A DNA stretch of 64,000 bases. Origin: Erythrobacteraceae bacterium. Lineage in GTDB: Bacteria; Pseudomonadota; Alphaproteobacteria; Sphingomonadales; Sphingomonadaceae. The stretch lies in contig JAIYAL010000042.1 of NCBI GenBank assembly GCA_027489095.1, forward strand, positions 8,153-72,152. Reading direction: 5' to 3'. The notes below the pieces were generated by a model, which ran no database searches, had not been told where the DNA came from, and saw only the letters and a program-made list of their open reading frames with translations. The position numbers and the translations under genes were made by a program. Below, in pieces: positions 10,827 to 52,676 of this stretch; the stretch's first letter is position 1, and each line of letters starts with the position of its first letter.

Positions 10827-11288
10827 ATGGCCGAGACCCTTACCTTCACCCTCGACACCGGCGACGGCGAAGCCCGCGACGTCGTCATCAAGCTGCGCCC
10901 CGATCTGGCCCCCGGCCACGTCGCGCGCATCGCCGAGCTGGCGAGCGAAGGCTTCTATGATGGCGTGATCTTCCACCGCGTGATCGGCGGCTTCATGGCG
11001 CAGGGCGGCGATCCGACCGGCACCGGCATGGGCGGCAGCGACAAGCCTGATCTGGCGGCGGAATTCAACGCCGAACCGCACATCGAAGGCGTATGCTCGA
11101 TGGCGCGTTCGCAGAACCCCAACAGCGCCAATTCGCAGTTCTTCATCTGCCTTGATGACGCGCGCTTCCTCGACAAGCAGTACACCGTGTGGGGCCAGGT
11201 CACGAGCGGCATGGAACACGTCCACGCGCTGCCCAAGGGCGAACCGCCGCGTGCGCCCGGCAAGATCGTCAAGGCGACGGTGGCCTGA
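10827..11288 (+). CDS. Cyclophilin-type peptidyl-prolyl isomerase
   Basis: FYDGVIFHRVIGGFMAQGGDPTGTG and SMARSQNPNSANSQFFI; AGGAG RBS. Confidence 0.95.
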   Translation: MAETLTFTLDTGDGEARDVVIKLRPDLAPGHVARIAELASEGFYDGVIFHRVIGGFMAQGGDPTGTGMGGSDKPDLAAEFNAEPHIEGVCSMARSQNPNSANSQFFICLDDARFLDKQYTVWGQVTSGMEHVHALPKGEPPRAPGKIVKATVA

Positions 11289-11296
11289 TCGCCTTC

Positions 11297-11322
11297 TCCC
11301 CCTCCTCTTGCGAGGAGGGGGA
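11297..11322. repeat. REP-like palindrome / possible terminator hairpin
   Basis: Perfect 11-bp stem TCCCCCTCCTC-TTGC-GAGGAGGGGGA; a related palindrome lies at 53957-53981. Confidence 0.55.
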
Positions 11323-11414
11323 TGCGCGATTGACCCCGTCACCGGCGGGCCTACAGCGTTGTCACTCATGGCATCCTGCGCGCGCCCACAGACCTTCGCC
11401 GATTGCGGCTTACC

Positions 11415-37670: not shown

Positions 37671-37773
37671 GTGTTCCTCGATCCCCAGGGGCCTCTACCG
37701 ACCCCTTATAGAAGCGCAGCGCGCGCCCCGCCACCTGTTGCAAGAATGCAATATGAACCAGAGATTACAAGTC

Positions 37774-37789
37774 TTGAGAACGCTCTCAA
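37774..37789. promoter_or_regulatory. Putative LacI-family operator
   Basis: TTGAGAACGCTCTCAA is a near-palindrome with a central CG. It lies between the divergent halogenase and TBDR and matches 44510-44525 at 14/16. Confidence 0.75.
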
Positions 37790-37861
37790 AATGCGTTACC
37801 AATGCTACGACCGCAGCTTCAGGCACGAAACTGTCGCGCGGTAGGGGAGAGTTGAAACATT

Positions 37862-40800
37862 ATGAAAACCGCATCGCTCGCGCCGCGCCGGCGTCTGCTC
37901 GCACTTGGTACCGCCTCGGCGCTCGCCATCGTCGCCGCCAACCCTGCGCTGGCGCAGGATGCCCAGGCCGACGATCAGGACAAGGACGTCGCCGAAGCTC
38001 CGGCCGAGCCCGAAGGTGAACAGATCATCGTCACCGGCTACCGCGCCTCGCTAGAGAGTGCGCAGAGCATCAAGCGCAATGCGGATACGATCGTCGACGT
38101 GGTGACTGCCGAAGATATCGGCGCGCTTCCCGACCGGTCGATCGCCGAAACGCTCCAGCGTATCCCCGGCGTCAACATCGGACGCTTCGAGAAGACCTCG
38201 GACCCGACCCGCTTCTCCGTCGAAGGCACAGGCGTCATCATCCGCGGTCTGCCCTATGTCAGCTCGCAGCTTAACGGGCGCGATATCTTCTCGGCCAACG
38301 GCGGCCGTGCGCTGAGCTTCGAGGACGTTTCGCCCGAACTCGTTGGCCGCGTCGAAGTCTACAAGAACATCACCGCCGACCAGATCGAAGGCCACATTGC
38401 GGGTCTCGTCAATCTCGTCACCCGCAAGCCGCTCGACAAGCGCGGCTTCCACGTGGCCGGTTCGGTCGAAGCGAACTACGGCGATCTGCGTCAGGAATGG
38501 TCGCCGACCTACAACGTCCTTGCATCGGATACCTTCGAAACCGGGCAGGGCACCTTTGGCCTCCAGCTCAGCTATTCGAAGTCGGAGCTGAAAAGCCGCA
38601 CCGATTCTTCGCAGTTGGTCGATTACTGCTATCGCCCGGCGAACCTAAGCGGTGGTTGCGCGCGCATTTTCAACCTCAATTCGGGCGGGTTCGGCGATAC
38701 GCCCAACTTCACGCCCGCCAACTTCCCGCCGCCCAATTCGGTGATCGTGCCGCAGTTTGCCAACGTTCGTTCGACCACGCTCGATCGCGATCGCGAGGCG
38801 TTTTCGGCAGTCGGTCAGTTCGAAACGCTCGATGGCAACCTGTTGATGACGGTCGAATATCTGCGTTCGGAAACGTCGTTCGCCACGGAGGAGTTCGCGC
38901 TTCTGGGCCGCATCGACGACGGCGTGTCGACCAACCAGCCGCGGCCGGGCACGACCTACAAGTTCGACGAGAACGGCAATTTCGTGAGCGGCATTCTCAC
39001 GCAGAACGTCGGCAATGCCTACGCCAACCCCTTCGGCCGGGGCGGCATTCCGATGGATTCACTGCGCTTCGTGCGTGACACGACGTCTGTCACCGAAGAT
39101 CTCTCGTTCGATGCGAAGATGATCTTCACCGAGCGTTTCCGCGGCAAGATCGAGGTGCAGAGCCTCAATTCGAATCTGCGGCGCGATTCGGTCTTCGGTG
39201 CCATGAGCACCTGGGCTGATATCTCGATCGACCGCTCGCGTGGTGGTACGCCGGACATTCAGTTCCTCGCCCCGGTTGGCGCGCCTGCCGATTACTTCAC
39301 CAGCGGACGCAACAACTACTACTGGTTTGGCCTCGATAGCCGCGAGCAGAACGACGGCGAGCTGTTCAGCTTTGCCGGCAATCTGGAATACGACCTGAGC
39401 GATGACGGGTTCTTCCGCAGGGTAGAGGTCGGTGGTCGCTGGGCGGGGCGTGACCGTGTCAATCGCAACACCAACTTCAGCACCTGGGGCAATCTTTCGG
39501 CTCCTTGGGCAGGCCGCGCAGGCTGCGCGCCATGGAATGACGGGCCGGGCTGCGCCGCGACCGGCGGTTTCCAGCCGGGCCGCTTCTTCACCGGCTTGCC
39601 GGGTCAGGAATTCGCGATTGCAGGCGGTGCCTTCGCTGACGAATTCCCGAATGCCTCCGGATATCGCGCGCCGTTCGCCGACAATTTCCAGCGCGGCGAG
39701 GCAGGCACCCCGATCGCGGGTGGTGGTGCGTTCTTCTACGGCGGGGACGACTTCCTGAAGGAATACCTGGCTGGCGTGACCGATCAGCAGTGGGACGCAA
39801 TCAGCACTTTCGGCCAGTCGCCGGAACGCTTCAACCTCGGCGTCAATGGCCGCTCCCGCACCCTGCTCGATGGCACGGTCGTCCAGTGCGGTCCGTACTG
39901 CCCCTCGGAAATTTCTGACGTCAAGGAAGCCACCACGGCAGCCTACGCGCGCGTCGACTTCGGTGCCGACTTTGACGGCGGAGCATCGCTCGCGGGGAAC
40001 ATCGGTCTGCGTTACGTCCGCACCACTGTCAGCAACGATTCGCTGGTGGCGTTCCCTGACCCGGGACGGTTCGACGAGGTACCGACTGGCAATCGTGACG
40101 GCATCGTCCAGGTCTCGGAAATCACTTCCTCCTGTCTCGGAGCCGGTCCCGGTGTTCCGCAGCAGGCCTTCTGCCAGCTCACCGGCGCGCGTCTTGCCAG
40201 ATTTGCCGCCTTGCACACCAACGAGCTTATCCGCGATCAGCGCGACATCAATTTCGATCACTTCCTGCCGTCCTTCAACGTCCGCTACGACAATGGCAGC
40301 GGGATCGTTATTCGCGGGGCGGTGTCAAAGGGTATCAGTCGTCCTGATCTGAACCTGTTCAACGCAGGCGGCGTGCTCGGCTTCAGCGGGCGCGTTGCGG
40401 ATGGGCCGCTGCTGTCGATTGGGACCGGTAATCGTAACCTGCGGCCGACCGAATCGTGGAACTACGATCTCAGCGCGGAATGGTATTTCGCCAAGGTTGG
40501 CCAGCTGAGCGCCGCTCTGTTCGTAAAGGATATCAAGGGGATCGTTTCTTCGGGCACGGGCTTGGTCAATTACACCGCGCCCAGTGGCACCTCTGAGGAT
40601 GTGATCATCAATGGTCCGGCAAATGATATCTCGGGTAGGCTCAAAGGCTTCGAACTGGCCTATCAGCAGACCTATGATTTCCTTCCTGGGCTGCTGAGTG
40701 GGCTTGGTTCCTCGTTTACCTACACCTATGTCGATGGCAGCGATTTCCCCAACCCGAACATCTCGGGCATCGGTTCGCCGTCGGTCACCAGCGGGGCCGG

Positions 40801-41179
40801 TCGGCCGCTCAACAACGGCCCGTTTGCCGGTCAGCTGCCGCTCGCCGGGGTTTCCAAGCACACCATCAACGCTACCCTGTTCTACGACAAGGGGCCGCTG
40901 TCGTTGCGTGCTGCCTACAACTGGCGCAGCGACTTCCTCGTGACGCAGCGTGACGACCTGTTCCCGTTCTCGTCGATCTTCCAGGAAGCGGGCGGTCAGC
41001 TTGACGGCACGATCCTCTACAGCGTGACCGACAACATCAAGCTGGGCGTCCAGGGGGTCAACCTGCTTGACGAAACCACCAGGCTGTCGACTCTCATCGA
41101 CTATAACGGGACGCGCCCGATCAGTGCGGTATTCCGCAACGATCGCCGCTACACCTTTATCGCACGCTTCGGTTTCTAA
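37862..41179 (+). CDS. TonB-dependent receptor (likely glucan oligosaccharide uptake)
   Basis: Signal peptide, IIVTG TonB box, DIGALPDRSIAETLQRIPGV plug, and C-terminal ARFGF. Confidence 0.95.
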   Translation: MKTASLAPRRRLLALGTASALAIVAANPALAQDAQADDQDKDVAEAPAEPEGEQIIVTGYRASLESAQSIKRNADTIVDVVTAEDIGALPDRSIAETLQRIPGVNIGRFEKTSDPTRFSVEGTGVIIRGLPYVSSQLNGRDIFSANGGRALSFEDVSPELVGRVEVYKNITADQIEGHIAGLVNLVTRKPLDKRGFHVAGSVEANYGDLRQEWSPTYNVLASDTFETGQGTFGLQLSYSKSELKSRTDSSQLVDYCYRPANLSGGCARIFNLNSGGFGDTPNFTPANFPPPNSVIVPQFANVRSTTLDRDREAFSAVGQFETLDGNLLMTVEYLRSETSFATEEFALLGRIDDGVSTNQPRPGTTYKFDENGNFVSGILTQNVGNAYANPFGRGGIPMDSLRFVRDTTSVTEDLSFDAKMIFTERFRGKIEVQSLNSNLRRDSVFGAMSTWADISIDRSRGGTPDIQFLAPVGAPADYFTSGRNNYYWFGLDSREQNDGELFSFAGNLEYDLSDDGFFRRVEVGGRWAGRDRVNRNTNFSTWGNLSAPWAGRAGCAPWNDGPGCAATGGFQPGRFFTGLPGQEFAIAGGAFADEFPNASGYRAPFADNFQRGEAGTPIAGGGAFFYGGDDFLKEYLAGVTDQQWDAISTFGQSPERFNLGVNGRSRTLLDGTVVQCGPYCPSEISDVKEATTAAYARVDFGADFDGGASLAGNIGLRYVRTTVSNDSLVAFPDPGRFDEVPTGNRDGIVQVSEITSSCLGAGPGVPQQAFCQLTGARLARFAALHTNELIRDQRDINFDHFLPSFNVRYDNGSGIVIRGAVSKGISRPDLNLFNAGGVLGFSGRVADGPLLSIGTGNRNLRPTESWNYDLSAEWYFAKVGQLSAALFVKDIKGIVSSGTGLVNYTAPSGTSEDVIINGPANDISGRLKGFELAYQQTYDFLPGLLSGLGSSFTYTYVDGSDFPNPNISGIGSPSVTSGAGRPLNNGPFAGQLPLAGVSKHTINATLFYDKGPLSLRAAYNWRSDFLVTQRDDLFPFSSIFQEAGGQLDGTILYSVTDNIKLGVQGVNLLDETTRLSTLIDYNGTRPISAVFRNDRRYTFIARFGF

Positions 41180-41191
41180 GGGCGCAAATCC

Positions 41192-42166
41192 ATGATCAGG
41201 GCAGGGCTGCTGAAGGCTTCTATGCTGACGGCGGCCCTGCTGCTTTTGGGGGCCAAGCCGCCCGAGGCGCAACTGGTCGCCCCGCGCGAAGGTGCGGGCT
41301 GGGAGCTGGTCTGGGCCGACGAGTTCGACGGCAGTACGCTCGATCGGGCCAAGTGGGCTCCCGAGGTTTCGTGCTGGGGCGGCGGCAATGCGGAACGCCA
41401 GTGCTACACCGACCGGGCCGAGAATATCGCTGTCGAAGGCGGGGTGCTGCTTCTCAAGGCGAAGAAGGAGCGCTTCACCGGCCCCGCGCGCCCGCCCGAG
41501 ATTGCCGAAAAGCGCAATCCCGACATCCTGCAGTCCTACACATCGGGCAAGGTCCGCACCCGCGGCCTGCACGCCTGGCGCTATGGCCGGATCGAGGTGC
41601 GCGCCAAGGTGCCGCCTGGGCAGGGCACATGGCCTGCGGTCTGGATGATGCCGCAGGAGGATATCTACGGCCCTTGGCCGCTTTCGGGCGAGATCGACAT
41701 TCTCGAGGCGGTCAATATCGGCGCCAAGTGCAAGGTGTGCGAGGGCGGCAAGGGCGAAAACCGCACCATCAGCGCGCTGCATTTCGGCGATATGGCGCCG
41801 AAGAACCGCTTCGTCGACAACCGCACCGCGCGCCCCGATCTGGCGCTGCCTTCGGACGATTTCCACGTCTATGCGGTCGAATGGGGCGAGCGGCTGATCC
41901 GCTTCCTCGTGGACGACCGGGTGCATCTGACCGTGCCAGCTGAAAAGTGGAGCACCGCCTCGCCGCTTGCGCGCCGCAATCCGGCCGCGCCTTTCGACCG
42001 GCCGTTCTATATCATGGCCAACCTTGCCGTGGGCGGGCACTTGTCGGAAAAGAACAATGCAAAGGGGGTTGCGGCAGGGACTTTTCCCACGCAGTTCGCC
42101 ATCGATTGGGTGAGGGTCTATCGCTGTGCCCGCGATCCGGAAACGGGGCGCGCCTGCATCCGGTAG
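41192..42166 (+). CDS. GH16 beta-1,3-glucanase (laminarinase-type)
   Basis: WADEFDG, GTWPAVWMM, catalytic EIDILE and PFYIMANLAVGG. Confidence 0.92.
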   Translation: MIRAGLLKASMLTAALLLLGAKPPEAQLVAPREGAGWELVWADEFDGSTLDRAKWAPEVSCWGGGNAERQCYTDRAENIAVEGGVLLLKAKKERFTGPARPPEIAEKRNPDILQSYTSGKVRTRGLHAWRYGRIEVRAKVPPGQGTWPAVWMMPQEDIYGPWPLSGEIDILEAVNIGAKCKVCEGGKGENRTISALHFGDMAPKNRFVDNRTARPDLALPSDDFHVYAVEWGERLIRFLVDDRVHLTVPAEKWSTASPLARRNPAAPFDRPFYIMANLAVGGHLSEKNNAKGVAAGTFPTQFAIDWVRVYRCARDPETGRACIR

Positions 42167-42187
42167 GCGGATAGGGGTGCGAGCATA

Positions 42188-43258
42188 ATGGCGCGGGTGC
42201 GCAAGACAGTCACTATCAGAGACGTTGCCGAGGATGCGGACGTTTCGCTCCAGACGGTAAGCCGGGTGGTCAACGGCGGGCCCAACGTGCGCCCGCAATT
42301 GCGCGACAAGGTGCGCGCTTCGATTGAACGGCTGGGCTATGTCCCGAGCCTCGCGGCGCAGCGCATGAGCGGCTCGCGCTCCTACATCATCCTTGCCATC
42401 AACGACCGCGAGCGCACGCTGGCTGACTGGCGCGAGCGGCGGGGGACGGACTGGGTCGACCAGATGCTGCTGGGCGGGATCCTGACCTGCTCGAAACACG
42501 GCTACCGGATGATGGTCGAACTGATCGACACGCACTCCGACCATGTCGAACGCGAACTCGGCGCGGCGCTCTCGGCGCTCCAGCCGGACGGGGTTATCCT
42601 CACGCCGCCGCACTCGGAAAACCGGCTGATCACCGAACTCCTCTCGGCCCGCGCGATTCCTTTCGCGCGGATCGGCTCGGACGTGGCTGGCCCCGGCATT
42701 CCGATGACGATGGGTGACGAAGGTGCAGCGCACCTTGCGACCACGCGCCTTGCCGAGCTTGGCCACCGCCGTATCGCGATGATCGCCGGGCCTTCGCAAT
42801 ACAGCCTTTCCGGCTGGCGGATCGAAGGCTGGAAGCGTGCATTGGCTGAGGCTGGTCTGCCCCACGAGGGCCTGCTGGAAGCAGGCGACTTCGGCTACGA
42901 ATCCGGCACCCGTGCGGCGCGCGCGCTGCTGGCACGCAATCCCGATTGCACCGCGATCATCGCATCCTCCGACCAGATGGCGCTCGCCGCGCTCGAGGTC
43001 GCGCGCGACCGCGGGCTCGTGGTGCCGCGCGACCTGTCGCTGATTTCCTTCGACAATACTCCGATCGTGCGCTTCACGCAGCCCCCACTGACCGCCATCG
43101 ACCAGCCGATCGCCGAGACTGTCTCGCGCGCGGTCGAGCAGCTCATCGCGCGCGACGAAGGGGACAACGGGGGCCAGGTAATCGAGGTCGCCGCGGGCCT
43201 CGTCGAGCGTTCCTCGACCGCGCCGCCGCCGCCCGTTTCGGCCCCGGCGCGGGCTTGA
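42188..43258 (+). CDS. LacI-family transcriptional regulator
   Basis: TIRDVAEDADVSLQTVSRVVN HTH and a periplasmic-binding-protein-like effector domain. Confidence 0.95.
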   Translation: MARVRKTVTIRDVAEDADVSLQTVSRVVNGGPNVRPQLRDKVRASIERLGYVPSLAAQRMSGSRSYIILAINDRERTLADWRERRGTDWVDQMLLGGILTCSKHGYRMMVELIDTHSDHVERELGAALSALQPDGVILTPPHSENRLITELLSARAIPFARIGSDVAGPGIPMTMGDEGAAHLATTRLAELGHRRIAMIAGPSQYSLSGWRIEGWKRALAEAGLPHEGLLEAGDFGYESGTRAARALLARNPDCTAIIASSDQMALAALEVARDRGLVVPRDLSLISFDNTPIVRFTQPPLTAIDQPIAETVSRAVEQLIARDEGDNGGQVIEVAAGLVERSSTAPPPPVSAPARA

Positions 43259-44451
43259 CCCCGCCTGACCCCGCCGATCCGCCGGAGCGCCAGCCCGGCT
43301 GGTTCCTAGCCCTCTTCGCGCTTGCCGCAGCCGGGGGCGCGGTCGCCTTTGTGCCGCTGCTCACCGTGCTGCTCCCGCAGCGCATCGCCGACCTGCAGGG
43401 GAGCGAGGATGTTGCCGCGCTCGCCCAGGTGACCTTTCTCGGCGCGATGATGGCGAGCCTTGCCAATATCGCAGTAGGCGCGCTGAGCGACCGCAGCCGA
43501 ACCCGGCGGCCGTGGATCGTCGCAGGGCTGATCTTCTCGAATTTCTGGCTGCTCCAGATCGGCAATGCCTCGTCGATTTCCGAGATCGTGCTGCTGGTGA
43601 TGTTGTGGCAGGTCGCGCTCAACCTGATGCTCGCGCCGCTGATGGCTTGGGCGGGCGATTGCTTTCCTGATGCGCAAAAGGGGATGCTCGGCGGCGCGCT
43701 GGCGCTGGCACCGGCGCTTGGCGCTGTGGCAGGGTCGCTGGTCACATATGTGGGGCTGGTCGACCCCGGCGCGCGGCTTTGGGTGGTGGCGGGGCTGGTG
43801 AGCGCGCTGGTGCTGCCTGCGGTCGTGTTCGGCGGTGGCAGAGTGCGTGCAGAACTGATCGCCCCTGCCTTTATCGAGCGCACGGCCCGGCCCCGGTGCG
43901 GCGGCGTCGTCGCGCGGATGTGGACCGCGCGGCTGCTGGTGCAGGTTGCCGAAGGGGGCATGTTTGCCTTCCTCCTTTACTGGCTGCGTTCGATCGCGCC
44001 GGGTTTCCCCGAGAACGCGGCGGCCAATGTCTTCAGCATCGTGCTGATCAGCGCGGTGCCACTGTCCTTGTGGCTCGGCCGCTGGATCGATGCCCACGCG
44101 CGCCCGGTGCGCCCGCTCGCGGGGAGCGCGGTGCTGTGCGCCGGTGGCATGCTGATCATGGCGACGGCGCAGACGCTCGTCCAGGCGATCACGGGCTACG
44201 TGCTGTTCGGGTTGTCCGCAGCGATCTTCCTTTCGCTCCACGCGAGCCACACGCTGCGCGTGCTGCCCGCCCCCCAGCATCGCGGACGCGATCTCGGGTT
44301 GTTCAACCTCACCAACACCGTGCCCGGAATGGTGATGCCGTGGCTGACCGTTTTGCTGGTGCCGCAGTTCGGCTATGGGGCGCTGTTCGTGCTGTTCGCG
44401 GGGCTCTCGCTGGCGAGTGCGGGGCTGCTTGCCGGGACCTTGCGAAGGTGA
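43255..44451 (+). CDS. MFS sugar transporter
   Basis: About 12 hydrophobic segments, GALSDRSRTRRPW and RGRDLGLFNL; TTG start overlaps the LacI stop. Confidence 0.85.
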   Translation: MTPPDPADPPERQPGWFLALFALAAAGGAVAFVPLLTVLLPQRIADLQGSEDVAALAQVTFLGAMMASLANIAVGALSDRSRTRRPWIVAGLIFSNFWLLQIGNASSISEIVLLVMLWQVALNLMLAPLMAWAGDCFPDAQKGMLGGALALAPALGAVAGSLVTYVGLVDPGARLWVVAGLVSALVLPAVVFGGGRVRAELIAPAFIERTARPRCGGVVARMWTARLLVQVAEGGMFAFLLYWLRSIAPGFPENAAANVFSIVLISAVPLSLWLGRWIDAHARPVRPLAGSAVLCAGGMLIMATAQTLVQAITGYVLFGLSAAIFLSLHASHTLRVLPAPQHRGRDLGLFNLTNTVPGMVMPWLTVLLVPQFGYGALFVLFAGLSLASAGLLAGTLRR

Positions 44452-44509
44452 CGGATCGAGGCGGCGCGCGCGCTTCGCCCTTGCCAAAAGCGAGCGGCGG
44501 CGGCATAGA

Positions 44510-44525
44510 TTGATAACGTTCTCAA
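44510..44525. promoter_or_regulatory. Putative LacI-family operator
   Basis: TTGATAACGTTCTCAA, about 30 nt upstream of the GH3 start. Confidence 0.75.
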
Positions 44526-44557
44526 AAAAATGAGCGAATGGGTAAGGGTCGGACTTG

Positions 44558-46927
44558 ATGGTGCGAGGCGGAGTGGGTCGGCTGGTATTGGGAGCCGCGG
44601 TTGGTGCGCTTGCGGCGCTGCTTGCCGGGTGCAGCATGTTCGAGGGTGCGACGCAGGATAGCACCCCTGAAGCGCTGCTCGCGCGGATGAGCCTTGAGCA
44701 CAAGGTCGCGCAGATCATCATGCCCGACATCGGCTCGATCACGCCTGCGGACGTCAAGCAATACCGCTTCGGCACGATCCTCAACGGCGGCAATTCCGGC
44801 CCCTATGGCAATGACAAGGCGCCTGCGGCCGACTGGCTCAAGCTTGCCGACGAATATTGGGAGGCCTCCTCCGCGCCGCTGCCGGACGGCGAACCGGTGA
44901 TCCCGGCGATCTGGGCGACCGACGCGGTGCACGGTCATGCCAACGTGATCGGCGCGACCGTTTTTCCGCACAATATCGGGCTGGGCGCAGCGGGCGATGC
45001 CGATCTCGTGCGCCGTATCGGCGCGGCCACCGCGGTGGAGATCGAAGTGACCGGCCTCGACTGGACCTTCGCCCCCACCATCGCGGTCGCGCGCGATGAT
45101 CGCTGGGGCCGCACCTACGAAAGCTATTCCGAAGACCCCGCGCGCGTCACCCGATTGGGCGCAGCGATGGTAGAGGGGCTTCAGGGCCGCGCGGGCGAAC
45201 CGGGCTTTCTCGGCGAGGGCAAGGTTGCGGCCACCGCCAAGCATTATTTCGGCGATGGCGGCACCACGCAGGGTGTCGATCAGGGCGAAGTCACCGGCGA
45301 TCTCGATGCGCTGATGGTGATCCACGAGGCACCCTATCCTGCCGCGATCAATGCAGGCGTAGCCAGTGTCATGGCGAGCTTCAATTCGATCAATGGCATC
45401 AAGATGCACGGCAACAAGGCGCTGCTTACCGATGAGCTGCGCGGGAAGCTGGGCTTCGAGGGGCTGGTGGTCGGAGACTGGAATGGGCACGGCCAGATCA
45501 AGGGCTGCACCAACACAGTTTGCCCGCAGGCGCTGATGGCGGGGCTTGACGTCTACATGGTGCCCGAGGACTGGAAAGGCCTCCACGCCAGTCTGGTGGC
45601 GCAGGTCAAGGATTGCACGATCCCGATGAGCCGGCTTGACGAGGCGGTGCTGCGGGTGCTGCGGCTGAAGCAACAGCTCGGGATCCTCGATGGCGAGGTC
45701 AAGCCCTCGGAGCGCGCCAATGCGGGCCGCTGGGAGCTGCTCGGGTCGCCCGAGCACCGCGCGCTTGCCCGTGAGGCGGTGGCCAAGTCGCAGGTGATCC
45801 TCAAGAACAGCGGGGTCTTGCCATTGAAGCCCGGTGCGCGGATCGAGGTGGCGGGGGCCGCTGCTGACAATATCCCGCAGCAGGTCGGTGGCTGGTCTGT
45901 GACATGGCAGGGTGGCAGCGAGCTGACTGCGGCCGATTTTCCCGGTGCGACCTCGATCTGGGCCGGCATTGCCGCGGCGGCCAAGGCGGCTGGCGGCGAA
46001 GCGGTGTTGACGCCCAAGGGCAGCGCGCCAGGTGCGTCCGGGAGCAAGCCCGACGCCGCGATCGTGGTGTTCGGCGAGCAGCCCTATGCCGAGTTCGTGG
46101 GCGACCGCAAGGATCTCGCCTTCCGCGACGAGGAGGGGCTGACGCTGCTCAAATCCTATCGCGCGCGCGGCATCCCGACCGTCGCGGTGTTCCTTTCGGG
46201 CCGGCCGCTGTGGGTCAACCGCGAACTCAATGCCGCTGATGCCTTCGTGGCCGCGTGGCTCCCCGGCAGCGAAGGGGCAGGGGTGGCCGACGTGTTGTTT
46301 GGCAAGCGCGCGCCCACAGGGCGGCTGTCCTTCAGCTGGCCCAAGACCTGCGAGGGCGCGCCGCTCAATGATGCCAAGGGTGCGCTCTTCCCGGTCGGCC
46401 ACGGCCTCGACTACGCGAGCGCCTCGGTTGTCCCGCAACTCAACGAGACCTGCGCCGCGCTTGTCCATGATGCGGCCGCGGTGTGGTTCGACAACGGCAA
46501 GCTTGGGCCCAAGGTGACCGCGCGCGCCGACAATGTGGCACTGCCCGATCTGCGCGGGGCCAAGGGCGGGATCGTCGCCACCGGGATCGACCGCCGCGCG
46601 CAGGAAGACGCACGCCGGATCGCTTTTGCACCCGGTGCGCGGCTCTCCCTGACCGGGCCGATCAGCAGCGCAGGCTGGCGGATCACGTATCGCGTCGCCA
46701 GCCGCCCGCCCGGCCCGGTGACGGTGGCGGCGGGCGGAAAACCGCTCGACATCACCCAGGGGCTTGGCGTGGCCGAGGGCAAGGGCTGGCGCGAGATGGT
46801 GCTCACCCCGGCCTGTCTCGGCGGGGCGGGCGGCAAGCTGACCTTCGCTTCGAAGGCGCGGTTCGCCTTGGAGATCGGCGCGATCACCCGCGACGAAAGC
46901 GCGACTTCCGCAGAGTGTTCGTTCTAG
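44558..46927 (+). CDS. GH3 beta-glucosidase / exo-glucanase lipoprotein
   Basis: Lipobox LLAGC, TDAVHGH, KHYFGDGG and nucleophile VGDWNGH. Confidence 0.93.
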   Translation: MVRGGVGRLVLGAAVGALAALLAGCSMFEGATQDSTPEALLARMSLEHKVAQIIMPDIGSITPADVKQYRFGTILNGGNSGPYGNDKAPAADWLKLADEYWEASSAPLPDGEPVIPAIWATDAVHGHANVIGATVFPHNIGLGAAGDADLVRRIGAATAVEIEVTGLDWTFAPTIAVARDDRWGRTYESYSEDPARVTRLGAAMVEGLQGRAGEPGFLGEGKVAATAKHYFGDGGTTQGVDQGEVTGDLDALMVIHEAPYPAAINAGVASVMASFNSINGIKMHGNKALLTDELRGKLGFEGLVVGDWNGHGQIKGCTNTVCPQALMAGLDVYMVPEDWKGLHASLVAQVKDCTIPMSRLDEAVLRVLRLKQQLGILDGEVKPSERANAGRWELLGSPEHRALAREAVAKSQVILKNSGVLPLKPGARIEVAGAAADNIPQQVGGWSVTWQGGSELTAADFPGATSIWAGIAAAAKAAGGEAVLTPKGSAPGASGSKPDAAIVVFGEQPYAEFVGDRKDLAFRDEEGLTLLKSYRARGIPTVAVFLSGRPLWVNRELNAADAFVAAWLPGSEGAGVADVLFGKRAPTGRLSFSWPKTCEGAPLNDAKGALFPVGHGLDYASASVVPQLNETCAALVHDAAAVWFDNGKLGPKVTARADNVALPDLRGAKGGIVATGIDRRAQEDARRIAFAPGARLSLTGPISSAGWRITYRVASRPPGPVTVAAGGKPLDITQGLGVAEGKGWREMVLTPACLGGAGGKLTFASKARFALEIGAITRDESATSAECSF

Positions 46928-46937
46928 CGCGCTTGCG

Positions 46938-48908
46938 TCAGGGCGTGACGATGTCGAAGCCGTGCGGCATCGGATCGAGGCTGTCTATCAGCGATTGAAG
47001 CGCGGCTTTGTCGCCTTCGATGGTCACGCCTTCCATGCCGCTCACCACGCTCACCGGCATCTTGACGAACAGCAGCGCGAGCAGCGCGCGCCGAGGCCCG
47101 CGCAAGGTCACGTCTGCCTTCGCTGAAAGCGCGCCGACCCGGCCGATGATCGCCTGTTCGCCGACTTCGACAACCGCCTGCTCCTTGCGATCAGTGAGGT
47201 CGATCGCGACCGTGTAATTGCGACGACCGGGCCGCTCGGGCGCAAACAGGGTCGCGGCGGAATCCAGCAGTTCCTGCGTCGAAAGCGCGGCGATCAGGTC
47301 ATTGCTCTGCGCCGCGTTGCGATCCACCCGCCCGCTCCTCAGCTCGCTCGCCGCGGCGATGAACTGGTTGCGCCAGATCGCGCTTTCGGACTGGTAGCCC
47401 TGTTGTTCGTAACTGCCCGCAAGCATCGCCTTGGCTTTGGCATTGGTGGGATCGGCGAAGACGAGGTTCTGGAGCAAGTCCGACGACCAGCGATAGTCGC
47501 CCGCCGCCATCGCATTCTCGGCCAGCGCCAGCGTCCGGTCTGCGCCGCCCAGCGCGTCGATCAGCTTCACGGCGCGCTCGACAGGCGGGTAGGGGTGAAG
47601 GTTGGCCGGGACCGCATCATACCAGCCCAGATAGAACTGGTAGATCGCCTTCGCGTTGTGACTGATCGTGCCGTAATAGCCGCGCGTCGACCACTCCTTG
47701 GCGTTGCCCGGCGGGGGCGATTTCTCGAGCGCCTCGGCAATCTCGACCATCGTCTCGCCGCGGTTCATCCGGCGCACGGTCTGATCGTGGAGCCAGCGGT
47801 AATTGTCGCGCTGCGCGGAAAGCCACGCAGTCCCTTCGGCCCGCCCGAACACCGGCCAGCAATGGCTCGAGATCACCGCATTGCTCTCGGGCGCATAGCG
47901 GGTCGCCGCTTCGTCGAGATAGCGCGCCCATGCCCGCGCATCGCGCACCTTGGCGCCGCGCGGCGTGAGGATGTTGTGCAGGCTGCAGGTCGCGATCTCG
48001 GCGGCGAGGAAGGTTTTTTCCGGCTTCACGAAGACGTTGAATTCCGCCGGGGCCTCGGTGCCCGAGACGATCTGGAATTCAAGCGTGACGCCATCGACCA
48101 CGCGGGTATCGCCGGTTTTGGCGACCGTGTCGGTCGGCGGGATCAGCGACAGCGTGCCCGCCGAAATACCCATGCCGATGCCGCTGCCCATCTGGCCCTT
48201 GGCGCCGGGCGAAAGGCCGGTGCCAAACTGGTAGGCCGCGCGCCGCAACATCGCGCCCCCGGCCATCACGTTCTCCGAGGTGGCTTCCTCCATGAAGCCC
48301 GCCGGGGCGATGATCGCGACTGTCCCGGCCTTGACCGCCGCTTCGTCCACGACGCCCTTGACCCCGCCGAAATGGTCGCCGTGGCTGTGCGAATAGATCA
48401 CCGCACTCACCGGGCGCGTGCCGAGGGTGGCGTTGACCAGCTCCATCGCCGCCTTGGCCGTTTCGGTGCCGGTCAGCGGGTCAATCACGATCCAGCCGCT
48501 TGTGCCGCGGATGATTGTCATGTTGGAGACATCGAAGCCGCGGACCTGCCACACGTTCGGCGTGACCTTGAAGAGGCCGTGGTGCTTGAGGTGGCTCATG
48601 TGGCGCCACAGGCTGGGGTTTACCGTAAGGGGCGCCGCGCCGGTGACGAAGGCATAGGCGTCGAGGTTCCACACGGGCTTGCCTGCCGCATTGAGGATCA
48701 CCGGATCCTTCCTCGTGGCGAGGAAGCCGCGCTGCGAGTCCGCCGCATCGCGGGTGCCTTCGGGCGGAAGCTCCTTGATGATCGCCGCTTGCTCGGCGCG
48801 GGTGAAGCCGCTCGCACTGCCCTGATCTTGCGCCCGCACGTTGCTGGCAGCGCCCAGCATAGCGATAAGCCCGAGCGCCGCGCTCGCCCGCAATCCAGCC
48901 TTTGTCAT
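46938..48908 (-). CDS. Alkyl/aryl sulfatase (SdsA-type MBL fold)
   Basis: WQVRGFDVSNM, YSHSHGDHFGG, LHNILTPRGAKVRD, and an SCP2-like C-terminus. Confidence 0.9.
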   Translation of the reverse strand: MTKAGLRASAALGLIAMLGAASNVRAQDQGSASGFTRAEQAAIIKELPPEGTRDAADSQRGFLATRKDPVILNAAGKPVWNLDAYAFVTGAAPLTVNPSLWRHMSHLKHHGLFKVTPNVWQVRGFDVSNMTIIRGTSGWIVIDPLTGTETAKAAMELVNATLGTRPVSAVIYSHSHGDHFGGVKGVVDEAAVKAGTVAIIAPAGFMEEATSENVMAGGAMLRRAAYQFGTGLSPGAKGQMGSGIGMGISAGTLSLIPPTDTVAKTGDTRVVDGVTLEFQIVSGTEAPAEFNVFVKPEKTFLAAEIATCSLHNILTPRGAKVRDARAWARYLDEAATRYAPESNAVISSHCWPVFGRAEGTAWLSAQRDNYRWLHDQTVRRMNRGETMVEIAEALEKSPPPGNAKEWSTRGYYGTISHNAKAIYQFYLGWYDAVPANLHPYPPVERAVKLIDALGGADRTLALAENAMAAGDYRWSSDLLQNLVFADPTNAKAKAMLAGSYEQQGYQSESAIWRNQFIAAASELRSGRVDRNAAQSNDLIAALSTQELLDSAATLFAPERPGRRNYTVAIDLTDRKEQAVVEVGEQAIIGRVGALSAKADVTLRGPRRALLALLFVKMPVSVVSGMEGVTIEGDKAALQSLIDSLDPMPHGFDIVTP

Positions 48909-48992
48909 GTTTATGATCCCCTCTTCTCCCGCATCGGGTGATGCCCTGATGCCGGTTGCAATTCAAGACCGTGGCGGGGCAGGGCTTGGTTC

Positions 48993-49012
48993 AATCTGCA
49001 TACATTCAGATT
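48993..49012. promoter_or_regulatory. Inverted repeat, candidate operator
   Basis: AATCTG-N8-CAGATT in the AT-rich divergent region between the sulfatase and the IDH-like/ArsR pair. Confidence 0.35.
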
Positions 49013-49116
49013 ATGGAACGTTTGCGAGGAAAGATTGAATTATTCCGATGGCCGCCTTGCAGCTAACAGGCCGCCACCCGCTTCCCTTCCGCAGCGCCAA
49101 AGGGGCCTTCATCGTC

Positions 49117-50292
49117 ATGGACCAGAGCAGCGAACGACCTGGCCCGGTGCCGTCCGATGGCACCCGCGCTGCCCGCGTCCCGCGCGCGCCGGGGTTGGCG
49201 GTGGTGAGCGATCCCCTGCGGCTGGACAAAGGCGGCGATCCTATGCGGCAATCATGGAGCGCTTCGCTCGCCGACTTGCAAGGATGGCTAGGCATCGACA
49301 GCGCCTTCGTCCGCGCGTCTGACGCGGTCGCCCCGGTTTTCACGCCCTGGGCTGGTTGGAGCCCGGCCGCCTTCCAGAACGGCGGCTGCGCGGGGCTTCC
49401 CGAGGCGCAGTTCGTCGCCAGTTACTGCATTGACCACGCCCGCGGCGGCGGGAGCGATGTCATGCTGATCTCGCCGCACCCGATCACTTGCGCTGCCGGG
49501 CCGGACGATGTCGAGGGCGAGGGCGAGCGCGGGCGCGAGCTGGGCGGACTGCCGCGCACGGACGTGCTGGCGGCGATGATCCGTGCAGCAGCGGGCGAGG
49601 GTCGCAAGCGTCTCGCGATCATCGTCCATGCCCGTCACCGCGCCGCGCTCGTCGGCCTGCAACTCGCCGAGGACACGCGGCTCTGCCCGCCGGGGACTGC
49701 GCTCGACATTCTCGGCATCGAGGACGCGCTGCCGCAATTGATGCGCGCACAGCCAGCGTGGGACGCGGTCATCGCTCTGCCGGACCTGCGCGGCATTGTT
49801 TTCACCCTGCTGGCCGAGACCACCGGGGTGCGCGGGCCCTGGCCGATGCTGTGGTACGGCCGCGGGCGGGCTGGTCAGGCTGCGGGCAGGCTCCTGCGAG
49901 TGACCTGCGAAACGGACGGCAAGCTTGGGGGCGGTTCAGGCGGCACCCTGCCGCTCGACGCGCAGGCGCTTGTCCTAGCGCTGGCGCTGAGCTTGCGTGT
50001 GACTGGCCTGGAGACGGGCCTGGAAACTGGCGAACTGCGCGCGGCAGGGCGGCTCCAGACGGGCTGGGCGCGGCTGCGCGACCGCGGCGTCACCACCGCG
50101 CGCCGCGGGAGCGATGCGCCCTATGCGTGCGAGGTGCCGGAGGCCGAGTTCATCGCCCTGCTGTGCCGCGATGCTGCCGTCAGCCAGCGCCCGCATCACC
50201 CGGAGAGGCCGCTGGAAAACAGCCAAAAATCAGTTTATGCAAATCAAACCCCTGTCTTGCGGCTTGTATCTTCAAATCGCGCTGACCTTTGA
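49117..50292 (+). CDS. Degenerate isocitrate/isopropylmalate dehydrogenase-fold protein
   Basis: GRKRLAIIVH, IEDALPQLMRAQPAWDAVIALPDLRG, AQALVLALALSL and LQTGWARLRDRGVTT follow the IDH/IMDH C-terminal motif order, but catalytic residues are replaced. Confidence 0.6.
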   Translation: MDQSSERPGPVPSDGTRAARVPRAPGLAVVSDPLRLDKGGDPMRQSWSASLADLQGWLGIDSAFVRASDAVAPVFTPWAGWSPAAFQNGGCAGLPEAQFVASYCIDHARGGGSDVMLISPHPITCAAGPDDVEGEGERGRELGGLPRTDVLAAMIRAAAGEGRKRLAIIVHARHRAALVGLQLAEDTRLCPPGTALDILGIEDALPQLMRAQPAWDAVIALPDLRGIVFTLLAETTGVRGPWPMLWYGRGRAGQAAGRLLRVTCETDGKLGGGSGGTLPLDAQALVLALALSLRVTGLETGLETGELRAAGRLQTGWARLRDRGVTTARRGSDAPYACEVPEAEFIALLCRDAAVSQRPHHPERPLENSQKSVYANQTPVLRLVSSNRADL

Positions 50293-50310
50293 CATTAAAG
50301 AGGTATCTCA

Positions 50311-50679
50311 ATGCCGAGCCGCAAGATTGTTGCGAGTGAATTGGCGCACGTGCTGCGGCAGATATCCCATCCCGACCGCATCCGCCTGCTCCTGAAGCTT
50401 CAGTCGGGCGAGCAGACCGTCAACGAATTGGGCGACATCCTCGAAATCTCGCCGACCCGCGTCTCGCAGCATCTGGGCGTACTGCGCGCAGTGGCACTGG
50501 TCGAGACGACCACCCACGGGCAGAAGCGGGTCTATCGCCTTGCCCAGCCCGAGCTCGCGGTATGGCTGATCGAGGGGATCGACTTCATCGCCCATCGCCT
50601 GAGCCGCGCCACACCTGCCGATATCGAGCATGCCAAGCAGCTGTGGGAGGCCGAGGCGGCCGAACCGGTCGAAACCTGA
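50311..50679 (+). CDS. ArsR/SmtB-family regulator (no Cys)
   Basis: LRQISHPDRIRLL, VNEL and VSQHLGVLR...VYRL winged HTH. Confidence 0.9.
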   Translation: MPSRKIVASELAHVLRQISHPDRIRLLLKLQSGEQTVNELGDILEISPTRVSQHLGVLRAVALVETTTHGQKRVYRLAQPELAVWLIEGIDFIAHRLSRATPADIEHAKQLWEAEAAEPVET

Positions 50680-50701
50680 CGGCAAGCCGCGCGATGCTGC
50701 C

Positions 50702-51367
50702 TCAGCAGGCGTGCGCGGTGAGCATCTGGGAAGCGACTTCGGCGGCGTAGCGTTCTTCGACCGGCACCCAGCTTTGCGCTGCCTCGTCATAGGCGGAAAC
50801 CCCGCCGGTCTTGATGTCATAGACCCAGCCGTGCAGCTCAAGCGCCTTCTGCGCCAGCGCGACCGCCACCGTCGGGTGGGTCTTCAAATGCTGCAATTGC
50901 AGGATCACGTTCTGCTCCAGCAGCATCTTCATCTTGTTCTCGGGATCAAGATGCCCGCCCAGCGCCTCGGTGATGTCGACCGCGCCTTGCGCATAGCCGA
51001 GCCACTCGCGCACGTGCGGCAGGCTGGTCAGCGCGGCGCGGTTCATCGCCCCCTTCATCGCTCCGCATTGGGTATGACCGCAGATCACGATATTGGGGAT
51101 CTTGAGCGCGCCGATCGCGAATTCGATCGAGGCGGTCATGCCGCCGGTCTGATTGGTGTGCGGGGGGACAATATTGCCCGCGTTGCGGCAGATGAACAGC
51201 TCGCCCGGATCGGTCTGGGTCAGCATCGCGGTCTCGATCCGGCTGTCCGAGCAGGTGATGAACAGCGCCTCGGGGCTCTGCCCGGTGCTGAGCCGCTCGA
51301 ACAAGGCCTGCTTTTCGGGGAACACCTCGCGCTGGAACTTGACCACGCCTTCGGCGAAACGGGACAT
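50702..51367 (-). CDS. Beta-class carbonic anhydrase
   Basis: FITCSDSRI, RNAGN, ICGHTQCGAM and LHGWVYDI. Confidence 0.96.
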   Translation of the reverse strand: MSRFAEGVVKFQREVFPEKQALFERLSTGQSPEALFITCSDSRIETAMLTQTDPGELFICRNAGNIVPPHTNQTGGMTASIEFAIGALKIPNIVICGHTQCGAMKGAMNRAALTSLPHVREWLGYAQGAVDITEALGGHLDPENKMKMLLEQNVILQLQHLKTHPTVAVALAQKALELHGWVYDIKTGGVSAYDEAAQSWVPVEERYAAEVASQMLTAHAC

Positions 51368-51554
51368 GGGATGGGGTCCTTTCGATCGGCACTTGGCGTG
51401 TAAGACCTGCAAATCCACGCAGGTTATCAGGCTTGAAGGTATGGAAGGTGAGGCGCAGCGTCAAGCCGCGCCAGAGTGTTGCGCAAGGTCGCAGTGATTT
51501 GTCACACCTGCCGGCATCATGTACTTCGGTCGGCAGGGATGTGGGGGATTTGCG

Positions 51555-52676
51555 ATGAAGGTGATGATTTCGCTGGCGGCTGCTGTCTTGGCGGCGGGTG
51601 TTCCGATGCAGGCAGCGTCGGCACATGAATCGCCAGAACACGCGCTTGAGGAAGCCCGTGTTGCGGCCATGCGCGAGACGACGCTCGCCTTTCTCGCAAG
51701 TCTCGATGATGCCGGACGCGCCGCCGTGCAGGCGCGCCTGGATGACAACGAACGCCGCACCGCGTGGTCGAACCTGCCCGCCAATGCGGCGCCGCGATCA
51801 GGATTGACCGTGGCCGAGATGGACGCCGGGCAGCGTCAGGCGCTCCACGCGATGCTGGCGGCGGCCTTTTCCAGTCAGGGCTACCTGAAAACCGTAACCT
51901 CGATGTGGCACGAAGATGTGCTGCACGAGCTGACAGCCAAGGCACTGGGCGCCCTGCCTGACGGCGATCCGCGCAAGGTGCGGGGCATGGCTTTCCTCCC
52001 GAATTACGATAGCGAGAAGTTCTATCTGACGGTGTTCGGCGACCCCAAGGGCGCGAACTGGGGCTGGATGATGACCGGCCACCACTATGCCGCAAACTTC
52101 ACCGTGGCGGACGGACGGATTGCCTTCACGCCGCTGTTCCTCGGCGCCAATCCGCAGACCGTGACCGAAGGCCGGTACGCCGGCTGGCGGATCCTCCAGC
52201 ACGAGGCCGACCGTGCCTTGGCGCTGCTGGCCGCATTGAACCCGGCTCAGGCAAAGCAGGCCGTGGTGGCGGGCGAAGTCGACAATTCGGTGTTTGTGGG
52301 CAAGGGGCAGCAGGATCGCATCGGGGCCACGCCCAGGGGAATCGCCGCCTCCGCGCTCGATCCCGTGCAGCGCCAGCTGCTGCTCGCCGTGATCGACGAA
52401 TATCTCGGCGATGCTTCGGACGAGGCCGCAGCCCGCCAGCGCGCGGCGATTACCAAGGACGGGCCGGACAAGCTCTATTTCGCCTGGTGGGGGCCGACGA
52501 ACGATCCCAAGGCCCGCTATATGTTCCGCGTGGCTGGGCCCTCGATCATCATCGATTACGTGCGCGAAAGTTCGCCTGATGGGGGCTTCAATCACGTCCA
52601 TTCGATCGCCCGCGATCCCACAAACGATTACGGCGCGGGCTGGCTCGGTCAGCATTACAAGGAAGCGCACCAGTAA
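51555..52676 (+). CDS. Secreted DUF3500-family protein
   Basis: Signal peptide, WGWMMTGHHYAAN, YFAW and NHVHSIARDPTNDYG. Confidence 0.8.
   Translation: MKVMISLAAAVLAAGVPMQAASAHESPEHALEEARVAAMRETTLAFLASLDDAGRAAVQARLDDNERRTAWSNLPANAAPRSGLTVAEMDAGQRQALHAMLAAAFSSQGYLKTVTSMWHEDVLHELTAKALGALPDGDPRKVRGMAFLPNYDSEKFYLTVFGDPKGANWGWMMTGHHYAANFTVADGRIAFTPLFLGANPQTVTEGRYAGWRILQHEADRALALLAALNPAQAKQAVVAGEVDNSVFVGKGQQDRIGATPRGIAASALDPVQRQLLLAVIDEYLGDASDEAAARQRAAITKDGPDKLYFAWWGPTNDPKARYMFRVAGPSIIIDYVRESSPDGGFNHVHSIARDPTNDYGAGWLGQHYKEAHQ

Follow-up and report, generated by a model that had tools for sequence, protein, structure and literature searches.

A predicted isocitrate dehydrogenase-fold pseudoenzyme encoded with an ArsR-family regulator at inorganic-carbon uptake loci of Erythrobacteraceae and relatives

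Introduction

The fold of isocitrate dehydrogenase (IDH) and isopropylmalate dehydrogenase (IMDH) has been kept for regulation or structure in human IDH3 beta and gamma, yeast IDH1 and ATPTB3 of the euglenozoan ATP synthase (6tdu_B). Each of them either has a catalytic IDH subunit as its partner or belongs to a large complex, and IDH3 beta and gamma still bind citrate or ADP with most of the Arg and Asp set. Here, we analyse a gene in a 64,000-nucleotide stretch of DNA from an Erythrobacteraceae bacterium (contig JAIYAL010000042.1; this whole stretch is hereafter the window). Its product, which we call the IDH-like protein, has IDH3 chains as its best Foldseek matches and ATPTB3 among its profile matches, but its constant neighbours are a transcription factor and carbon-uptake genes, with no catalytic IDH gene nearby. 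The transcription factor is an ArsR/SmtB-family regulator, ArsR1, and in the window a beta-carbonic anhydrase (beta-CA) gene converges on the pair. An initial annotation of this locus had proposed a catalytically dead dehydrogenase retained as a sensor that partners the regulator and possibly tunes the carbonic anhydrase (CA).

An ArsR-family regulator that depends on a separate protein for its signal has been described in Streptomyces griseus, where the DNA binder SrnR works only with SrnQ, an unrelated ligand binder encoded with it, in a 1:1 complex (PMC7055735). SrnR, which has no sensing site of its own, is among the nearest solved relatives of the window ArsR1. SrnQ has no known fold relatives, senses nickel and controls sodF, whereas its possible counterpart in the window has a predicted IDH fold and lies in a carbon-uptake context.

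The product and the cofactor of IDH are 2-oxoglutarate and NADP+. Regulators that read metabolites to control bicarbonate or CO2 uptake genes include CcmR/NdhR, CmpR and CbbR, all of the LysR type, and a LysR gene flanks the IDH-like gene in four lineages. In these regulators the effector domain lies within the LysR protein, and a separate enzyme-derived sensor or an ArsR partner has not been described for them. The cyanobacterial CcmR senses 2-oxoglutarate and NADP+ to control carbon uptake (PMC3401165). A different arrangement is that of SbtB, a small, soluble, non-catalytic PII-like protein that reads ligands and is encoded beside the bicarbonate transporter SbtA (bioRxiv 10.1101/2021.02.14.431189). 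SbtB differs from the IDH-like protein in having another fold and in acting on the transporter, and it is not known to have a transcription-factor partner. A literature search found no published description of an IDH-like/ArsR pair, or of an IDH-like or ArsR-type component in carbon-uptake regulation of this kind. To our knowledge, little has been described on how non-autotrophic bacteria regulate CO2 and bicarbonate uptake via DAB pumps and SulP-CA pairs.

Results

A predicted divergent member of the IDH/IMDH fold

Searches of Pfam, NCBIfam (E up to 1) and PDB sequences with the window open reading frame (ORF), or with the profile of its close family, found no real match, and the best direct hits (ribosomal protein uL1 and LacI, E 0.3-0.6) were rejected as chance. 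The family profile reaches short relatives of 300-340 residues (hhalign probability 99.3%, E 5e-20, 229 columns), one of which, P0166, passes the Pfam Iso_dh model (34 bits, cut-off 27) and matches Thermus IDH among PDB sequences at E 2e-9. When the profile was built from the family together with its distant members, it matched 60 PDB sequences, all of them IMDH, IDH, homoisocitrate dehydrogenase or ATPTB3, with an IMDH as the best match (E 2.5e-10). IMDH was still at the top (E 0.007) after removal of every member that matches Iso_dh, and this Iso_dh-free profile aligned to E. coli LeuB, DmlA and Icd with an hhalign E of 2e-5. The close family alone found the correct register at values that are not significant (E 0.27 against LeuB and 0.19 against LeuB, DmlA and Icd together). 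PdxA belongs to another family with this fold, and hhalign against the E. coli protein revealed no profile similarity (probability 0.07% over 17 columns).

The sequence methods cover only the C-terminal half of the chain, and Foldseek covers all of it. An AlphaFold2 model built from 52 sequences had a mean confidence (pLDDT) of 83.7 and a predicted TM score (pTM) of 0.82. Its top 50 Foldseek matches were all IDH3, IMDH or IDH, at probability 1.00 and E 2e-10 to 2.5e-8, including human IDH3, plant and bacterial IMDH and yeast IDH; the alignments had TM scores of 0.5-0.62 and ran over 359-414 columns (~370), i.e., the whole chain. The profile chain and the structural model thus agree in supporting the assignment that the initial annotation had made by comparing motifs: the protein is predicted to be a divergent member of the IDH/IMDH fold, with a resemblance beyond chance.

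The match to LeuB (1cnz), human IDH3 and yeast IDH (PF00180) extends over the whole fold, with a recognisable register of strands and helices. Unlike the PF00180 enzymes, the IDH-like protein has long disordered tails with conserved motifs, no nucleotide loops and a new invariant Arg. In the AlphaFold2 model, the clasp strands of the IDH fold are replaced by short helices (residues 122-141), and residues 1-33 and 357-391 are predicted to be disordered. Each tail carries a motif (PGLAVVS and PVLRLVSS, respectively), and the two resemble each other (P-x-L-x-(L/V)-V-(S/T)). The C-terminal one is retained in the distant relatives of 300-340 residues (as LRLVR, LKLVTA or MRVVG). These motifs look like docking peptides or swapped strands.

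Apparent family-wide loss of catalytic residues

Residue correspondences with LeuB were read from HMMER and hhalign alignments, whose registers agree from residue 175 on, and residue states were counted in 52 close-family sequences. Two of the three metal-binding Asp of LeuB (D227, D251 and D255) are replaced: D251 corresponds to G226 in the window (Ser in 36 sequences, Gly in 16) and D255 to T230 (Thr in 35, Ala in 17). The third acidic ligand, D227, is kept as Glu in 52 of 52 sequences (E202). LeuB G250 corresponds to an Arg, again in 52 of 52 sequences, and this invariant R225 adjoins the former metal site. The initial annotation was right that metal Asp had gone, and had overlooked both E202 and R225.

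The catalytic LeuB K195 aligns to H171 (hhalign) or H174 (HMMER), which are variable or Gln positions in the family. Whatever the register, there is no Lys in window residues 168-178, where the family consensus reads V-x-A-R-Q-R-N-A. The nucleotide loop E-x-x-HGSAPD is reduced to an invariant Glu (E265, 52/52) followed by unrelated residues; the family has E-A-x-G-E-G..LPLDAP in this region and the window ETDGKLGGGSGG. The N-terminal GDGIGPE loop is absent as well. In the N-terminal alignment, which is of low confidence, LeuB R99 falls on A97, R109 on a gap, R138 on S119 and Y145 on C125 or A126, and an SPHP motif stands in place of RE.TEG at the R138 region. No Arg is conserved within residues 87-125 across the family. 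The catalytic Tyr and the Arg triad thus appear to be lost, as far as this part of the alignment can be trusted.

Judged from these alignments, the residues needed for oxidative decarboxylation are lost, and the loss is family-wide. The three motif replacements listed in the initial annotation were correct in substance (loss of the Lys, of the metal Asp and of the nucleotide loop), except that one pairing was off by one position: in the profile alignments, RGIVFT, and not GIVFTL, stands opposite GDILSD.

Other features of the IDH/IMDH family are retained, namely the FD(V/A) motif, the P(K)W motif and the Glu that ends the EP.HG strand. Polar residues that are invariant in the family include Q87, S102, Y103, D114, S119, R163, E202, R225, E265 and Y336. 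Positions of the former cleft (S119, P120, P122, R173, E202, R225 and E265) are among the most conserved, which suggests that the cleft is still used, in some way other than for metal-dependent oxidative decarboxylation.

A small family under purifying selection

A search of 5.8 billion proteins returned 111 full-length homologues, 37-56% identical, all of them unnamed and without a Pfam domain. The few that carry an organism label are all from Erythrobacter. The family is small, since an exhaustive profile search of 1.84 billion cluster representatives gave just 67 clusters. We fetched 45 loci from Erythrobacter, Porphyrobacter, Blastomonas and allied metagenome-assembled genomes (MAGs), i.e., 46 counting the window. 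Some genomes have two IDH-like paralogues, e.g., Erythrobacter sp. WG (loci L022 and L034) and a MAG labelled Synechococcus sp. UW140 (L031 and L042). In each, one paralogue is accompanied by ArsR1, and the other lacks it and lies directly against a SulP-CA-ArsR2 operon (ArsR2 being a second ArsR-family regulator). The 'Synechococcus' bin, with its Erythrobacter-type loci, is probably contaminated or mislabelled, and so, probably, is the Blastomonas-like contig L045 labelled 'Acidovorax delafieldii'.

All 46 copies of the gene are intact. The ratio of nonsynonymous to synonymous substitution rates (dN/dS, or omega, by Nei-Gojobori) was 0.10-0.19 for the closest pairs, with a median of 0.36 over 231 pairs. 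The window copy had an omega of 0.37-0.45 against its nearest relatives, and the flanking genes 0.06-0.24. These values (0.10-0.45 overall), well below 1, together with the intact copies, show purifying selection and exclude neutral decay, one of the outcomes against which the initial annotation had wished its proposal checked.

Within its clade, the window copy has diverged furthest (no more than 62% identity, against 82-96% for the neighbouring genes). It has Glu at position 363, where 50 of 52 relatives have Trp, and a tandem peptide repeat (TGLE-TGLE-TGEL) as a loop insertion between two helices. Across the family, the ratio of IDH-like protein distances to those of neighbouring genes is 4.0 in loci without SulP and ArsR2 and 3.15 in the others. 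This small difference may hint at relaxed constraint where these genes were lost, and we do not rely on it.

Pairing with a cysteine-free ArsR regulator

ArsR1 is recognised by HTH_5 (PF01022, E 3.5e-10, 40 bits, cut-off 22) and by NF033788 (68.6 bits, cut-off 55). An orthologue lies directly downstream of the IDH-like gene, on the same strand, in 42 of the 46 loci, the window counted. Of these 42 pairs, 39 lie 0-46 nt apart, often just 0-1 nt, which suggests translational coupling, and in the window we predict that the two genes are co-transcribed as one operon. The four loci without ArsR1 (L034, L040, L042 and L043) have the IDH-like gene directly against an ArsR2-CA-SulP operon, and at least two of them (L034 and L042) hold second copies in genomes that have a first locus. 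The pairing recurs far from the window: all three contigs with short distant relatives encode an ArsR of the same clade that converges on the IDH-like gene and is 44% identical to the window ArsR1 (E 1e-34), unusual C-terminal extension included. The ArsR1 clade has 198 relatives at E <=1e-10, with a distribution as narrow as that of the IDH-like family.

The regulator has no Cys in 41 of the 42 loci, including the window. Among solved structures, those of BigR, SrnR and an uncharacterised ArsR come nearest, and ArsR1 has a Leu at the position of BigR Cys42. The specific NCBIfam sensor models all scored far below their cut-offs against ArsR1. It presumably also lacks the alpha5 Asp and His ligands of CzrA (D-x-H...H-x-x-H/E), a reading made by eye. 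Thus, none of the sensing sites known from other ArsR proteins (alpha3/alpha3N Cys, the BigR Cys pair and alpha5 Asp/His) was recognised in it. The clade has an invariant N-terminus, MPSR.IV..EL (MPSRKIV in the window), and a C-terminal W..(E/D)(G/A).(D/P)F...LW, which in the window is part of the extension W..EGIDF....AK.LW.

Inorganic-carbon genes beside the family

Four interchangeable modules occur beside the family: a beta-CA alone, ArsR2-betaCA-SulP, ArsR2-iotaCA-SulP and LysR-DabB-DabA. The commonest form in Erythrobacter and Porphyrobacter is a minus-strand ArsR2-betaCA-SulP operon. Orthologues of the window beta-CA were found in 35 loci, at 83-92% identity. The window is one of 8 loci among the 46 in which the beta-CA stands alone, without SulP and ArsR2. 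The directly converging CA of the window is therefore a derived arrangement, a result of the loss of these two genes. A partial SulP fragment (61% identity) lies at L028:9689-10420, in an Erythrobacter cryptus MAG, with no CA detected between ArsR1 and ArsR2, and the uptake operon may be decaying there.

In three loci (L032, L033 and L037), the beta-CA is replaced, between ArsR2 and SulP, by a 203-residue iota-CA, a metal-independent carbonic anhydrase with an HHSS motif (NF047901, E 1.7e-62; in L032 at 10932-11543, minus strand). The first ~35 residues of the iota-CA still resemble the N-terminus of the beta-CA, as if the new gene had been spliced into the old start. In five Blastomonas-type loci, LysR-DabB-DabA is divergent from the IDH-like gene (DabA, PF10070, E 4e-256).

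DabAB, together with an ArsR or a LysR gene, is also the neighbour of relatives that are only ~20% identical, on contigs of differing G+C content. P0163 has DabB-DabA-DUF6671-ArsR next to it and a divergent LysR; the neighbours of P0158 and P0150 are DabB-DabA and a LysR divergent from the IDH-like gene; and P0148 is preceded by a LysR. The gene for the DUF6671 protein of a distant lineage (L049:4838-5737, minus strand) stands between dabA and the ArsR gene, and this protein might serve DAB loci as a further accessory. One locus, L022, is an exception to the carbon-gene context; its genome carries a second locus (L034).

Because three unrelated CA solutions (beta, iota and DabA) share one position, we argue that, as read from gene content, the function of the neighbourhood is CO2/bicarbonate acquisition rather than sulfate or dicarboxylate transport. 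The SulP of these loci scored below the cut-offs of the DauA, SulP and BicA models. A sulfur reading, which the alkyl sulfatase upstream, SulP and the BigR-like ArsR might evoke, was rejected: Blastomonas and distant loci have no sulfatase, a CA always accompanies SulP (the iota-CA replacing the beta-CA in three loci) and DabAB takes the place of SulP elsewhere. The IDH-like protein was likewise excluded as DabC, the third DAB1 subunit, which is a small and unrelated membrane protein.

Promoter elements

Two elements, E1 and E2, lie upstream of the IDH-like gene (Table 1). They are aligned at a fixed offset of 30 nt in 28 loci and occur once per locus, upstream of this gene, and E2 is still recognisable upstream of the ~20%-identical relatives. 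The regular expression TTG[AT]ATTT[TCA], which represents the E2 core, matched 46 times in 805 kb of fetched loci: 35 matches are directly upstream of IDH-like genes, 6 upstream of dabB and 5 elsewhere. The Blastomonas dabB promoter, GTTC-N9-GAAC-N14-ATTGAATTTTCC, has the same architecture and spacing as the promoter of the IDH-like gene in the same loci. A dyad followed ~31 nt later by ATTGAATTTTCC was found upstream of dabB in L027, L029, L030, L035 and L045 (in all five at ~6790-6890, minus strand) and in L049 (~9924). Because this architecture is common to both promoters, the IDH-like gene and dabBA seem to be under a common regulator. A pair of LysR recognition and activation sites would fit the dyad, its spacing and the LysR gene that is often divergent; in the window itself, no LysR gene is adjacent.

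The CA promoter is built differently. Its layout recurs upstream of the ArsR2-CA-SulP operons, where the palindrome is TCTGCA-N6-TGCAGA, and it is kept in loci without ArsR2, the window included. From its position just downstream of the -10 element of operons that start with an ArsR gene, this palindrome looks like the operator of an autoregulated ArsR, and ArsR1 is the only ArsR of its clade left nearby in the window. A single operator common to both operons was looked for and not found: the CA/ArsR2 promoter lacks E1 and E2, and the region ahead of the IDH-like gene lacks the TCTGCA palindrome.

Organization and surroundings of the locus in the window

The basic layout given by the initial annotation (the coordinates of the ORF and its 391 codons, the 18-nt gap, the Cys-free ArsR and the converging beta-CA) was confirmed by reading the sequence and by the Pro_CA match (Table 1). 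The ATG at 49117 is the real start of the IDH-like gene, as judged from homologues that share the first residues MDQ(S/T)S and from the AAGG(A/G) conserved 8-12 nt ahead of it. The stop codons of ArsR1 and of the beta-CA are separated by 22 nt, and the beta-CA translation holds the CSDSR and HTQCG zinc motifs, i.e., a Cys-Asp-Arg ... His-x-x-Cys site is present. Scans of positions 48700-51700 gave no sigma-70 matches, no long inverted repeats and no Rfam family; the single terminator match lies inside the IDH-like ORF and is a chance match. The G+C content of the window is ~65%, and the only sequencing runs in which it recurs are of freshwater metagenome DNA.

Table 1. Coordinates of the features of the window.
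Feature	Position	Strand	Description
Halogenase gene and putative beta-glucan utilisation cluster	36159..46927		tryptophan-halogenase family (PF04820, E 2.5e-184); TonB-dependent receptor, GH16, major facilitator superfamily (MFS) transporter, GH3 beta-glucosidase
Alkyl sulfatase	46938..48908	-	next after the beta-glucan-type cluster
Upstream element E1	49000..49022	+	ATACATTCAGATTATGGAACGTT; TTC-N9-GAA / T-N11-A dyad
Upstream element E2	49030..49050	+	AAAGATTGAATTATTCCGATG, core ATTGAATTTTTCC; upstream of IDH-like gene
IDH-like gene	49117..50292	+	391 aa; ATG at 49117 inside ORF 49048-50292
N-terminal tail motif	49189..49209	+	PGLAVVS, residues 25-31
Tandem peptide repeat	50002..50037	+	residues 296-307
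C-terminal tail motif	50251..50274	+	PVLRLVSS, residues 379-386
Spacer IDH-like gene/ArsR1	50293..50310	+	18 nt; Shine-Dalgarno AAAGAGG, 7 nt ahead of ArsR1 ATG
ArsR1	50311..50679	+	122 aa, zero Cys; ArsR/SmtB family; HTH_5 and NF033788 matches
beta-CA	50702..51367	-	221 aa; Pro_CA PF00484, E 3.3e-47; converges on ArsR1
CA promoter region	51405..51464	-	TTGACG 51459-51464; CATACCT 51437-51443; palindrome ACCTGC-N8-GCAGGT 51405-51424
DUF3500 gene	51519..52676	+	PF12006, E 5e-79

The DUF3500 gene lies between the CA and acyl-CoA dehydrogenase genes, a gap of only ~200 nt in the related loci compared (e.g., L001, L007 and L031), and looks like an insertion in the lineage of the window. None of the halogenase, the beta-glucan-type cluster and the alkyl sulfatase is present in the Blastomonas or distant loci examined, and none of them appears tied to the IDH-like locus.

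Discussion

Our study shows that the association of the IDH-like family with carbon uptake and with ArsR is well supported, and that the family forms a branch of a known fold that is new and unannotated and occurs in a new context. Structural, evolutionary and comparative evidence upholds the proposal of a dead dehydrogenase with links to ArsR and CO2; that of a sensor that tunes carbonic anhydrase has the standing of a hypothesis. The trio described in the window is not conserved as such: conservation extends to the pairing with ArsR (42 of 46 loci, and again at ~20% identity), and the directly converging CA is found in only 8 of 46 loci and is derived. The link with CO2 is stronger than one converging gene suggests, given the beta-CA, iota-CA-SulP and DabAB modules and the promoter of the dabB type.

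We propose, with somewhat less than an even chance of being right, that the IDH-like protein is a non-catalytic ligand-binding partner of ArsR1 that reads carbon status and alters the repression of carbon-uptake genes. The remodelled cleft, with its invariant Arg by the former metal site and its invariant Glu residues, would bind the carbon-status signal, for which a hydroxy- or oxo-acid of the tricarboxylic acid (TCA) cycle, NAD(P)(H) or bicarbonate are candidates. The protein would then contact the ArsR dimer and pass on the signal, and this contact would change the repression of uptake genes by ArsR, e.g., that of the CA with its palindrome-bearing promoter. Such a model is reasonable because SrnR-SrnQ and CcmR provide precedents. 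A more complete version is doubtful as it stands: a pseudoenzyme that reads bicarbonate/CO2 or isocitrate, 2-oxoglutarate or NADP(H), switches a ligand-blind ArsR and thereby sets the expression of DAB and SulP-CA systems in heterotrophic and photoheterotrophic alphaproteobacteria.

Several observations weigh against a partnership with ArsR1. E1/E2 and the palindrome are each confined to their own promoter, so it is not obvious that one operator governs both operons. In the intermediate relatives P0150 and P0158, a LysR gene is divergent and an ArsR gene is not adjacent. This layout fits an IDH-like gene that is a target of carbon regulation as well as one that encodes a sensor, and as a LysR-target layout it favours a regulated component. 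ArsR1 could also sense a signal alone, via its invariant N-terminus or its C-terminal extension. Two relatives have no carbon genes nearby (P0133 on L056, with an HPP/CBS neighbour, and P0151 on L050, a short contig with a CHAT-domain neighbour). Finally, the IDH-like protein changes its amino acids 3-4 times faster than the products of neighbouring genes, and the window copy has three further lineage-specific loop insertions besides the tandem repeat.

Some of these points would be explained if the IDH-like protein were a regulated working part of the carbon-uptake regulon, endowed with a new, non-dehydrogenase activity such as a metal-independent reaction on a carboxylated or bicarbonate-derived substrate, with ArsR merely as an operon-mate. 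In Blastomonas, L054 and L055, a LysR gene diverges from the IDH-like gene, a layout typical of LysR targets; the E1/E2 architecture common to the dabB promoters suggests co-induction, and many polar residues of the protein are invariant. The parent IDH/IMDH family, moreover, handles CO2-releasing reactions. We nevertheless regard this explanation as unlikely, if worth keeping in mind, because the known catalytic machinery and the nucleotide loop are entirely missing, the fast evolution is unusual for an enzyme, and a gene so closely coupled to that of a transcription factor, often with overlap, more typically encodes a protein partner. An ordinary, very divergent isocitrate/isopropylmalate-type dehydrogenase that is still active is scarcely credible. 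The whole-length fold, the acidic ligand E202 and the strand-ending Glu of EP.HGSAP (E265) would be expected of it, whereas there is no Lys in any register, two metal Asp are lost, neither the GSAPD nor the GDGIG nucleotide motif is present, the Arg triad and Tyr were not recovered and Pfam Iso_dh does not match the window protein.

The protein might also act after translation, as a regulator or adaptor of the uptake machinery itself (the STAS domain of SulP, the CA or DabA), much as the PII-like SbtB controls SbtA, instead of as a partner of ArsR. The proximity of the family to four kinds of transport or CA module, the conserved motifs in disordered tails, which are typical of docking peptides, and the paralogues without ArsR1 that lie directly against SulP-CA (L034, L040, L042 and L043) would fit such a role. 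We think it improbable, since it would require partners without structural kinship (SulP, beta-CA, iota-CA and DabAB) and the most constant neighbour is the ArsR clade. It is more improbable still that there is no functional link at all, and that a lineage-restricted conserved hypothetical protein simply sits in an inherited neighbourhood. Most loci do come from one bacterial family in which the whole region is syntenic, and two relatives are found in other contexts. Yet, the association recurs in at least four gene orders with non-homologous carbon modules, it is repeated by ~20%-identical relatives on contigs of different G+C content, and the promoter architecture is common to dabB.

The IDH-like protein is thus a candidate new regulatory component of bacterial inorganic-carbon acquisition. 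An unnamed family of ~110 members, a matching ArsR clade and two conserved promoter architectures, which accompany carbon-uptake modules across several gene orders and three kinds of CA, offer a handle on how this acquisition is regulated in non-autotrophic bacteria. If the protein and ArsR1 do form a sensor-regulator unit, this would be a bacterial example of an IDH-fold pseudoenzyme in signalling and, as a CO2-responsive regulatory pair with a dead enzyme as one member, something not described before, and it would provide parts for controlling engineered carbon-uptake systems. Whatever the mechanism, over 100 'hypothetical proteins' now have a description, as IDH-fold proteins of carbon-uptake loci that are catalytically disabled.

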